Shown here one piece after another: positions 9,001 through 12,000 of a DNA stretch of 35,239 nt (positions are counted from its first letter, which is position 1; every line of letters begins with the position of its first letter). Source of the stretch: a virus (lineage: Duplodnaviria; Heunggongvirae; Uroviricota; Caudoviricetes); IMG/VR virus record IMGVR_UViG_2718218139_000010, positions 1 to 35,239 of that record. The stretch is one strand, 5' to 3'. A program made the position numbers.

Positions 9001-12000
9001 CGGGTCTCCCGATCGCGACCAGTCACGTACATCCCCAGCAGATCATCCAGCCCTCCGCCGTCAATCCCCACCGTCACCACATCAGCACGCTGCAGAATAT
9101 CGTCCAGACTGATGCGCCTGCCCTACTGCTCCCAGAAATCCGCCCCTGCCCAGCGGTCAGAACGCAGGGCAAGACCAATTTCCACATTGGCGTGTTTTGA
9201 CATGAAACCGCGGAAAGTCTCTTCCCCGGCTTCCCGGGCTTTACGATACTCCCGGTACAGAAAGGCCTCATCCACCGAATAACCGAGATTCGGGTTAACC
9301 ATGGCGAGGTTTTCCATCAGCAGGTGCTCACCGCTCTCCACCATTTCAGGAGGATGCTCAAAAATCACCGGCAGAAAATGCGGATCATGAATTTTACCGT
9401 CGCGCACATCCCGGGCGTACTGCAGTTTCTGCCTGAACACCCCGGCAGGCGGCTCATTTGACTGGGTGGTTGTGTACACCACAAACCCTTCCGGACGTGA
9501 AGCCAGCCCGCCAATGGCTTCACGTAACATGTCCTCCGCCTTGTACTGCTTGCCAAACAGCCACAGTTCATCAATCAGCGTCCCCACGGACTTAATACCG
9601 GACACCGTATTCGGATCGGCTGCCACCACCTTCAGGGTGGTGTCCGTCACCCTGTGGGTGATGGTCCGGATATGTGTCTGCACCTGACAGAGGTCATCCA
9701 GATCATCGTCCCGTCGTACCATATCCCTGGCAGGGTTGAAGGCGTTGGCTGCCACCTCCACTGTCGGGGCCAGAATCGTGTAACCCGCCGCCTGCCGCCA
9801 GTTCAGTAACAGTGCAGTCATCATGATCCCCGCGGCCAGCGTGGACTTCGAGTTTTTCTTGGGGATAAGGATAAACACTTCCTTGATATGGCGAACACCG
9901 GTCTGCGCATCGTAGGAGCCAAACAGGGCCGCCACCAGGTCAAACACCCACGGTGCACAGGACTCCCCGAATGTCGGGCTACCCGGTGCATCCACAATTC
10001 GCAGTTGTTTAAAAATCGCCAGTGCATGTGCAGCCTGGTCCGGATAAATCGGAGCCGGAATAATCGACAGCCCCTTTTTCAGGCGCTCTGCCCAGTCCGG
10101 ACATGCCGTGCTCCATACAGGTATCATCCGCTTTCCTCATTCTGGTTATTCACCACCAGTCGGGGAGGTGGTGGCACCGCAAAACGGTTAGCCGCTTTTT
10201 TCGCGGCATCACCTTTTGCCGATTTTTTACCGGCATCGCCTTTTTTATGGTGTGTGAACTGCGCCAGTCGCCAGGCCGCATCCAGTGCCAGTTTCGGGTC
10301 AATTATCAGGTTTTCCACCAGGATCTGCCCCATAGCTTTCACCGGATCGGGAAGACCATCCTCCATATATTCAATACCATGAGATATCACCGCGGGCGGA
10401 GGCATCTCCGGATTGTTTTCGTCCGGCTGTGGTATTGCAGCCACCTCACGGCGACGGGGTTTATCCTCCTGCTCTGATTTTTTCTGCCGGTAAACAGGAA
10501 CCTCATCCACCTCCACCGTTTCGCACTGTTTACGGGCTATAAACGCGAGCACCTCCGGATCTTTTGCCAGCTGCGAGCCTTTAACCCTGGCGGTCTTCGC
10601 CGAATAACCGGCGGCAATGGCTGACGCTGTTTTGTTTTTCCCGGACATGAGCGCCAGCGCAAATTTTCGTTTTTGCGTTGTCAGCACAGCCTCCTCCCGG
10701 GTCCATAACGCACTCAGCCGGGTATGGTTCAGCCCATTTTTCCCGGCGTCTCATGCCGCAAATGTTAACTGCTGCCTGGTTAACATTTGCTGAAAAAGCC
10801 AGTTAACATTTTTTTCGCACAACAAACTGAATAATAAAGATAAAAACCGCAAAAATGCCCGGGCAGCCAGTTAACATGTTAACTGGCCTGAAACAGGAAT
10901 TTTTTCTCTGCATGAGACGGGGGGCGGTGTCCGGGGCGATCGTTTTTTTCGCCGGATGATCCCCCCCCGGGGCGGGTCACAGTCCGATGATATCGTCTGC
11001 CCTGCCATGACCTCCGGACACCTCCGGCAGCGTCGGGTCCGGCATACCACTCGCCGTTTCACTGACTGACTTCTGGCGATGGCATTCGGTACAGAGCGTC
11101 CAGAGATTCGTCTCCTCATTACCACCACCGAACTGAAGTGCAATTCGGTGATCGAGTTCACTGTCACAGAGGTCAACCACACGACCACAGAGACAGCACT
11201 GCCCGGCATCCCTGAGCCAGATACGGCGCTTGAGGGAAACCCGGGCACTACCACTGACCCGACGCTGTTCACCCTTCAGGACATTCACCCGCCGGGTGTT
11301 CAGAGTTTTGATTCTGCCCGGTAACGTACGAAGCACAGCCATGTAAAATCCTCGCCATATAACTTGTCACCAGAGGAAAGAAAATGTCATCGAAAAACCG
11401 GACCCGCAGAACAACAACCCGCAACATCCGATTTCCAAACCAGATGATTGAACAAATTAACATCGCTCTTGACCAGAAAGGTTCAGAAAATTTTTCTGCG
11501 TGGGTCATTGAATCTTGCCGCCGGGAGCTGGCAGCAGACATAAAATATGCCCGTCAGTTGACTATAAAAAAGAATGATACACAGTATACTCTGCGATGGC
11601 TGTTCATATAACTATTTCTTTATATTGCTGAATTTATAAAAAATCACAGACATTAGCTGTATTAATTCCGAATTGAAATAATCAGCCATATAGAATAAAA
11701 ATAAAGCATAACAATAATAATCTTCTACCCAATCAGTACATTACTGCTGTGACTCCAACACGGCAGTTTTTTTATTGAACAGATTCCAGTTTCTTCCACC
11801 ATCGCACCGGATGGGCGACCATGAGGGGAGAACGCCGCGCTCCGTTTACGCGGTAAACCCCGGTGTGTATCGTTTTTGATTATCCCCGCACACTCTCGCA
11901 GAGGAGTCTCCCTGTCGGGCTGCGGTCTCTGTTAATGCAGGAATACGGCGACAATACCGCGCATGGATAATAAGGTCGCTCAACACACTGGCTGTAATTC

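Follow-up and report, generated by a model that had tools for sequence, protein, structure and literature searches.

The 35,239-bp stretch of the Caudoviricetes record IMGVR_UViG_2718218139_000010, here called the window, carries an intergenic region of 289 bp (10688-10976) between the gene of an HNH endonuclease and that of the small terminase (terS). This region is crowded with short repeats centred on GTTAAC, and the question is what the repeats are for and which protein reads them. A first-pass annotation, made from the sequence alone, had offered two answers, small-terminase recognition sites in a cohesive-end (cos) region like that of HK97, or an operator of the late packaging operon. 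Here we report that the region is the cos site of a lambdoid prophage with an HNH-dependent, 3'-overhang (HK97-type) terminase, and that its five repeats of the octamer ATGTTAAC are, as predicted from comparative data, most likely docking sites of the small terminase protein, TerS. All coordinates are those of the window; the site is read in gene direction, that is on the minus strand, with position +1 at 10916.

The cos site and its repeat array

The order of elements on the minus strand is HNH, intergenic region, terS and terL, the gene of the large terminase. Both flanking genes had been named correctly by the first-pass annotation. The HNH gene (10977-11342, minus strand; Pfam PF01844, E 2e-6) is the final gene ahead of the genome end and its product is the terminase partner, whereas terS (10124-10687, minus strand) belongs to family PF03592 (Terminase_2, E 1e-8) and begins with a GTG codon at +230. 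In loci with the 1.3 kb of preceding sequence that the scoring needs, an HNH gene stands immediately upstream of the cos core in every one of the 40 with a single site (class A) and in 68 of the 75 of array type (class B).

The position of the genome end was assigned by homology, the window prophage itself being defective. For the Shiga toxin (Stx) 1 phage Lys8385Vzw, whose corresponding region is 95-99% identical to the window, analysis of virion DNA with PhageTerm identified a cos phage with 3' cohesive ends of sequence CGCCCCCCCT (PMC7946995). The record of this phage ends in ...GGACACCGCCCCCCCT and starts with CTCACGCAGAG... (also CTCACGCAGAGAAAAAATTCCCGTTTCAGGGCAGTTAACATGTTAACTGG...; CTCACGCAGAGAAAAAATTCC...GTTAACATGTTAAC), and thus breaks exactly at this 10-mer. 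At the homologous position the record of Burkholderia phage Bcep176 has a 10-nt terminal redundancy, CGCACGTTCC, at both ends, and two further Burkholderia records are broken no more than 4 nt away. Burkholderia phages vB_PR2a and vB_E228, whose records do not start where that of Bcep176 does, were left out of the end evidence. The putative nicking site, cosN, of the window is thereby placed at 10917-10926 (minus strand), with the 10-nt cohesive end CGCCCCCCGT as a 3' overhang and the gene strand cut between 10917 and 10916. The variant CGCCCCCCGT is common to 22 of 116 distinct sequences.

Two further elements accompany the cut. On its right-end side lies a run of eight G on the gene strand (10961-10968, -45 to -52; C8 on the plus strand), a conserved cos element of 5-13 G, mostly 7-9. 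In 112 of the 116 distinct sequences upstream of the cut, those from Burkholderia included, its last G falls between -44 and -46; the run may play a cosQ-like role or position the nuclease. On the other side, conservation reaches from E. coli as far as Burkholderia for the left-end core CTCATGCAGAGAAAAAATTCC (10896-10916 on the minus strand, +1 to +21), in which an A6 tract occupies +12 to +17. The C8 tract and the GC-rich block (about 10917-10976) had been described as lying near the palindromes. Both are present, but they form the core of the site rather than its surroundings, since the cohesive-end sequence lies within the GC-rich block and the distance between the G run and the cut is fixed throughout the family. 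In one locus (L220, PPompW_132418, record 15712-17170) an IS110-family element, ISEc20, ends exactly at the G run of the cos site; the lysis and HNH genes are missing from the interval that separates the tRNA cluster from cos, and cos itself lacks its upstream part but retains the cut site and the array.

The repeats begin after this core. The octamer ATGTTAAC occurs six times in the window, where 1.08 copies are expected, and five of these copies lie within the 122 bp from 10762 to 10883; six copies were reached in none of 100 shuffles. GTTAAC hexamers start at 10764, 10779, 10802, 10870 and 10878, which corresponds to +148, +133, +110, +42 and +34 when counted from the cut, so that the array spans +34 to +155 ahead of terS. 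In gene direction the extended repeat reads AA[A/C]ATGTTAAC. The four to five GTTAAC-centred copies of the first-pass annotation are thus five, at a density far from chance. A tandem GTTAAC pair at 29581-29594 is unrelated; its flanks differ and the ATG extension is missing.

A repeat finder resolved the array into three parts. Nearest to the cut is the palindrome GCCAGTTAACATGTTAACTGGC (10866-10887, +30 to +51), composed of two overlapping AACATGTTAAC sites; it had been reported as perfect over 20 bp and is indeed perfect, its length being 22 bp. A single site, AAAATGTTAACTGGC, follows on the minus strand at 10798-10812 (hexamer at +110). The inverted pair GCAAATGTTAAC-N9-GTTAACATTTGC, with 12-nt arms at 10758-10769 and 10779-10790 (hexamers at +133 and +148), was found as described, with 9 nt between the arms. 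The palindrome is separated from the other three sites by an AT-rich spacer of about 54 bp (10813-10865), directly visible in the sequence, with T-tracts about 9-10 bp apart and a length that varies by no more than 2 bp across array sequences; a role in bending the DNA may be supposed. Between the inverted pair and terS lies a poorly conserved linker (10688-10757, minus strand), highly variable in an alignment of 68 sequences, at the end of which stands the Shine-Dalgarno sequence of terS, GGAGGAGG (10690-10697, minus strand).

Conservation of the array and its carriage by satellites

About 90 phage records contain the region at 94-100% identity, most of them from converting phages for Stx1a, Stx2a or Stx2c such as BP-4795, 2851, 1717 and YYZ-2008. 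Among 5426 complete E. coli genomes 1283 contain the cos region, with up to nine copies per genome. Six or seven copies are located on E. coli plasmid records instead of chromosomes, for example at 83263-83435 of NZ_CP074792.1. A scan of contigs with a single TerS sequence as query returned no relatives; a TerS alignment was needed as query and found 21 distant relatives, prophages of Enterobacterales genera and of Burkholderia, with TerS proteins 32-49% identical. In all 21 the approximately 110 bp upstream of terS are conserved, the consensus being a run of 7-8 G, then CGATCGCnCTGGACACCGCGCCCCCTCTCACGCACAGAAAAAATTCCCCTCTGGAGGGTGTAAAC, then directly terS beginning with ATG TTA ACA.

Viral contigs were scanned with a pattern derived from the cut-site core alone, the repeats not being part of it, and two architectures emerged, one with a single site and one with five sites. 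Sequences of the array type were chosen by the presence of at least four GTTAAC hexamers. Across 68 distinct five-site sequences, motif columns have a nucleotide diversity of 0.008, compared with 0.086 for the DNA between motifs and 0.062 for the first 40 nt of terS, so that variability is about 11-fold lower in the motifs than in the intervening DNA (Mann-Whitney p 7e-9). The hexamers occupy exactly +34, +42, +110, +133 and +148 in 56 of the 68 sequences and are shifted by at most 2 bp in 11 more; the exception in spacing is a variant satellite adjacent to fis (L094), and the +34 and +42 hexamers are found in 67 of 68. The motif is thus conserved in related prophages, and the repeats appear to be under selection independently of the flanking sequence.

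In a more distant phage lineage, on an E. coli contig (L227) whose TerS (P0040) is 65% identical, six GTTAAC hexamers are present. Its 22-bp palindrome is GGTGGTTAACATGTTAACCACC, with flanks GCCA/TGGC that differ from those of the window, are again symmetric and are repeated on the +110 site. This suggests either a longer recognised motif or concerted evolution of the copies.

The array is not confined to phages that encode terS. An island of about 10 kb resembling the phage-inducible chromosomal islands (PICI), inserted between cspD and clpS (L093/L096, E. coli FUJ80154), contains the core and the complete set of five sites with unchanged spacing in a cos region of 78% overall identity with diverged flanks, and has no terS nearby. 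Its genes code for an integrase, a regulator, Icd-like proteins, a RepA helicase and a fusion of a ClpP-like protease with a major capsid protein, which may redirect capsid size. The full cos region of this island was found in 25 of the 5426 genomes. A second island, next to fis (L094/L097, E. coli GPEC1186), has the same cut-site core, no terS and a variant array with four GTTAAC hexamers, a TAAACATGTTTA palindrome and a ATGTTTAC site. Satellites are known to carry the cos site of their helper (PMC6739421, PMC6092414). Retention of the array by the cspD/clpS satellite suggests that it would act in cis, independently of an adjoining terS.

The same satellites bear on the proposal that the repeats are an operator, bound by the product of the adjacent DUF3950 gene (YlcI/YnfO, ribbon-helix-helix (RHH)-like; 11384-11611, plus strand, opposite to HNH-terS-terL) or by another regulator that controls the packaging and head operon. 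Of the 75 array-type loci, 67 have a DUF3950 gene no farther than 1.3 kb from the core, as against none of the 40 single-site loci, a correlation that is confounded by lineage. Both cos-carrying satellites without terS that were examined (L096, L097) have a YlcI/YnfO paralogue, located in their regulatory region. However, the array in the cspD/clpS satellite has no operon downstream, and no motif is present near the promoter region of the DUF3950 gene (11343-11383). In DLP12 the YlcI gene (L221, 3752-3946), whose product is about 85% identical over the first 48 residues, likewise lies antisense in this position, but the cos beside it is of lambda type, GGGCGGCGACCT, and lacks a cluster of ATGTTAAC or GTTAAC. 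A scan for sigma-70 promoters and intrinsic terminators gave nothing above chance, the one weak sigma-70-like match, against 1.1 expected, being on the wrong (plus) strand. The second proposal of the first-pass annotation, a late-operon operator or target of the RHH protein, is therefore left unsupported by the promoter scan, the satellite and the DLP12 comparison, and we regard it as very improbable.

Equally slight are the chances that the palindromes work as RNA hairpins in the late transcript and control terS translation or mRNA stability. They do form hairpins in the predicted RNA structure, and the motif of the single-site relatives overlaps the terS start codon, but the fold of the region is not clearly better than that of shuffled sequences (z -1.86; 10 of 200 shuffles fold as well) and the array lies 70-190 nt from the real start codon, with the single site at +110 lacking a partner. 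The cspD/clpS satellite, moreover, keeps the array with no gene downstream. An Rfam search of the region gave no match beyond one miRNA at chance level.

The small terminase as predicted reader and the origin of the repeats

Residues 1-55 of TerS form a helix-turn-helix DNA-binding domain of the type found in G1P of phage SF6, as indicated by profile hits to PDB entries 2CMP, 4ZC3 and 3ZQP. An AlphaFold2 model shows four helices in these residues with predicted confidence (pLDDT) above 92, and Foldseek superimposes them on the SF6 structure 4ZC3 with a target-normalised template modelling (TM) score of 0.82 and a root-mean-square deviation of 1.6 A at 30% identity.

A variant of this domain is found in the TerS of one Hafnia phage and of E. 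coli islands with a terS of their own. In it KG[W/C]QL replaces KGSQL, the change from S38 to W or C being located in the predicted helix 33-41, and TEAA replaces TASA in helix 19-25. Loci with the variant TerS keep the G run and the cut-site 10-mer, and the repeat after the cut is AAAGTTACAC instead of ATGTTAAC: one copy in the Hafnia phage (+33) and two copies each in two islands (+32 and +44). One island, with terS at +229, has six core hexamers GTTACA, among them an inverted pair, three of the six occurring as AGTTACAC. TerS of the KGSQL type thus pairs with ATGTTAAC and that of the KG[W/C]QL type with AGTTACAC, at the same positions and next to the same cut site, a pairing that is correlative. 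In one island the TerS is a mosaic, the last approximately 70 residues being about 93% identical to a phage TerS and the DNA-binding domain different. Repeat type accordingly follows the TerS domain and not the host, the cut site or the end of TerS that faces TerL. The islands with a TerS homologue of their own (L222-L226 and L230-L231; P0065, P0073, P0054) have it next to a primase or AlpA gene, its C-terminus being helper-like and its DNA-binding domain swapped, and in L222-L224 and L230-L231 a capsid-like gene comes after terS.

This co-variation is also what separates TerS from other candidate readers. The repeats could belong to cos and be bound by TerL, the HNH protein or an architectural protein of the host, TerS itself recognising no more than the A-tract core (+1 to +25), in the manner of HK97. 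The TerS of HK97 binds a minimal site at +15 to +29 that includes an A-tract (PMC11331095) and is roughly co-located with the left-end core CTCATGCAGAGAAAAAATTCC, the A6 at +12 to +17 is conserved in every member of the family, and the AT-rich centre of the spacer, CTTTATnATTCA, is fairly conserved, as expected of a site for a host factor. Such a reader does not explain why the repeats change together with the DNA-binding domain of TerS while the cut site and the TerS C-terminus stay constant; for a host factor it further matters that both repeat types occur in E. coli. The TerS of the window, moreover, is of the SF6/Terminase_2 helix-turn-helix family and not of the HK97 TerS family. For integration host factor (IHF), the consensus WATCAANNNNTTR has no match within one mismatch in 10688-10976, so that the IHF site between R sites that marks a lambda-type cosB was not found. 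We consider a reader other than TerS unlikely, if less so than an operator or an RNA element.

In our judgement the region is probably a cos site in which five AA[A/C]ATGTTAAC sites, predicted to be bound by TerS, form an array of cosB type. The first-pass proposal of small-terminase recognition sites in an HK97-like cos is well supported in this form by their position at the genome end, their conservation, their presence in a satellite lacking terS and their co-variation with the TerS domain. Several points weigh against this interpretation. HK97 is the only phage with an HNH-type cos for which a TerS site has been mapped, and there TerS binds one 15-bp A-tract site, +15 to +29, by a different mechanism (PMC11331095); the conserved A-tract at +12 to +17 could be the true TerS site or an additional one. 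The ends of Lys8385Vzw come from read-based software rather than from direct end sequencing. Selection of sequences with at least four hexamers slightly favours conservation, though no array-like sequence with fewer copies was seen, and the array lineage is mostly one E. coli clade, many of the sequences being non-independent. The helpers of the satellites, finally, are presumed.

In the mechanism we propose, the N-terminal helix-turn-helix domains of a TerS oligomer would bind the five sites; physical binding and its stoichiometry are what we infer. Bound TerS would anchor TerL and the HNH nuclease at the adjacent nicking site, where staggered nicks would be made, and packaging would start towards terS.

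Most relatives have a single site of this kind, and they indicate how the array may have arisen. Their terS starts at +40 with a GT[A/T]AACATGTTAAC motif across the start codon (ATG-TTA-ACA) and the ribosome-binding site GGAGG just before it, and even in GC-rich Burkholderia GTTAA-N5-TTAAC is kept around the start codon. The homologue of the start-codon motif in the window is the ATGTTAAC that makes up the right half of the 22-bp palindrome; by this alignment the right half would represent the ancestral terS start region, and the ribosome-binding site before it has decayed. It is followed by about 190 bp of diverged sequence with three more copies, at the end of which terS now starts, at GTGCTGACA, behind a new ribosome-binding site. 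The E. coli lineage, then, would have gained about 190 bp between the ancestral site and terS and multiplied the site, the old start losing its ribosome-binding site and retaining the DNA motif. At the real start of terS the sequence has drifted to GTGCTGAC, whereas the ancestral copy, no longer coding, stayed ATGTTAAC and became symmetric; loss of the motif from the coding copy and its retention in the non-coding one argue that the DNA sequence itself matters.

Two other interpretations of the added segment were rejected. A mobile element does not fit, because the flanks diverge while the sites are fixed and a parallel array of another motif exists. A small hydrophobic open reading frame from the ancestral ATG (MLTGCPGIFAVFIFIIQFVVRKKC, 10877 down to 10803) has no ribosome-binding site and stops after four codons in the cspD/clpS satellite.

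The same history raises the question whether the repeats are neutral relics without present function, produced as the 5' end of terS (Met-Leu-Thr, ATG TTA ACx) was repeatedly duplicated or recombined. Every copy resembles the terS start region AAnATGTTAACnG, the ancestral start falls exactly at the palindrome, and the second copy of the inverted pair reads MLTRQQLTFAA, similar to MLTTQKRKFALA. Neutral relics would hardly show an 11-fold lower diversity than the DNA between them, lower also than that of the terS coding 5' end, or positions fixed within 2 bp in 67 of 68 distinct sequences. Nor would they be expected to persist in a satellite whose flanks have diverged to 78% identity, or to have a parallel array of a different motif in satellites with another TerS type, and TTAACA is kept even in GC-rich Burkholderia. 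There is in our opinion little to be said for this explanation.

Beyond the proposed role of TerS as reader, a wider hypothesis is offered tentatively, as one about which we are not quite evenly divided and lean slightly to doubt. The repeats and the helix-turn-helix domain of TerS may form a swappable code of packaging specificity, shared by Stx-type prophages and at least two kinds of satellite around one common nicking site for the TerL and HNH protein of the helper. Some satellites would mimic the phage array and others would bring a mosaic TerS with a matching array, and the passage from one to five or six sites would record competition for terminase among up to nine cos copies per E. coli genome.

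The cohesive end of a near-identical phage had already been published, and the array adds a new member to the cos sites of cosB type; a full-text literature search for the palindrome sequence gave nothing, and no description of the repeat array was found. The cos region sits in the head module of many Stx1, Stx2a and Stx2c phages. Known recognition sites would tell which prophages, remnants and satellites each terminase can package, and such packaging compatibility bears on the spread of toxin and effector genes. The natural pair ATGTTAAC/AGTTACAC with its matching TerS variants and constant cut site offers a ready test of an SF6-type small terminase reading DNA in a cos system. Knowledge of the repeats would also permit cos plasmids or cosmids specific to Stx-type phages.

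The defective prophage and known packaging systems

The window prophage is a defective, degraded remnant whose cos site itself is intact. terL (8466-10127, minus strand; PF03354 and PF20441, with ATPase and nuclease domains) has an in-frame stop at codon 335 (9123-9125; translation ...ADFWEQ*GRRISL...) at an unchanged length of 553 codons, and is thus a nonsense pseudogene that is otherwise full-length. Directly downstream of it, where portal and head genes are expected, lies an IS66-family transposase gene (6692-8305, plus strand). Beyond this element two genes resembling those of type III effectors are found, one for an NleC-type zinc protease (Peptidase_M85; 1-987, minus strand) and one for a SopA/NleL-like E3 ligase with pentapeptide repeats (1241-3613, minus strand). 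On the other side of cos an IS3-family element (orfA and orfB; 13405-14561, plus strand) interrupts the lysozyme gene, the truncated form of which is at 12993-13328, and the same orfB protein, its Pfam hits identical, is encoded a second time at 33217-34035 (plus strand). The DUF3950 (YlcI/YnfO) gene recurs antisense just upstream of cos in modules of the HNH type and of the lambda type, the latter in DLP12. The intact cos might in principle serve a related resident phage in trans.

[quoted passage not shown] The repeats begin 30 bp inside that end, in the place of cosB with its R3, R2 and R1 sites for gpNu1, and in both systems satellites exploit the site. Lambda differs in its 12-nt 5' overhang, the lack of an HNH partner, its winged-helix gpNu1, which is unrelated to the TerS of the window, and its proven IHF site, whereas the window has a 10-nt 3' overhang, an HNH gene, a TerS domain of SF6 type, the motif AAMATGTTAAC and no IHF consensus.

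Comparison with the mapped cos region of HK97 (TerS gp1, TerL gp2, HNH protein gp74) shows the same order HNH - cos - terS - terL, the same 10-nt 3' overhang and an A-tract soon after the cut, and the single-site relatives resemble it also in a cut about 40-50 bp upstream of terS. In the window, by contrast, terS starts 230 bp from the cut, and the TerS of HK97 is of another sequence family and uses its central tunnel to bind a single site of 15 bp (PMC11331095); an array of several sites has not been described for HK97. Phages SF6 and SPP1 share the N-terminal fold of TerS, and their G1P reads several short repeats in bent DNA at pac, but they package by the headful (pac) mechanism, have no fixed ends and lack an HNH partner.

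Among satellites, SaPIbov5, with the helper cos and HNH, and the E. coli PICI EcCICFT073, with the lambda cosN and its own cosB read through Rpp, likewise carry the nicking site of the helper, and it holds for cos-type satellites on both sides of the comparison that some keep the helper's recognition site and others change recognition and keep the cut site. The islands described here differ in using an HNH-type cos and in the predicted means of the switch, a complete satellite TerS with a swapped DNA-binding domain in place of an Rpp adaptor. The cos site of the window thus combines a layout like that of lambda cos with the gene order and end chemistry of the HK97-type HNH systems and with a predicted reader protein of the SF6 type.

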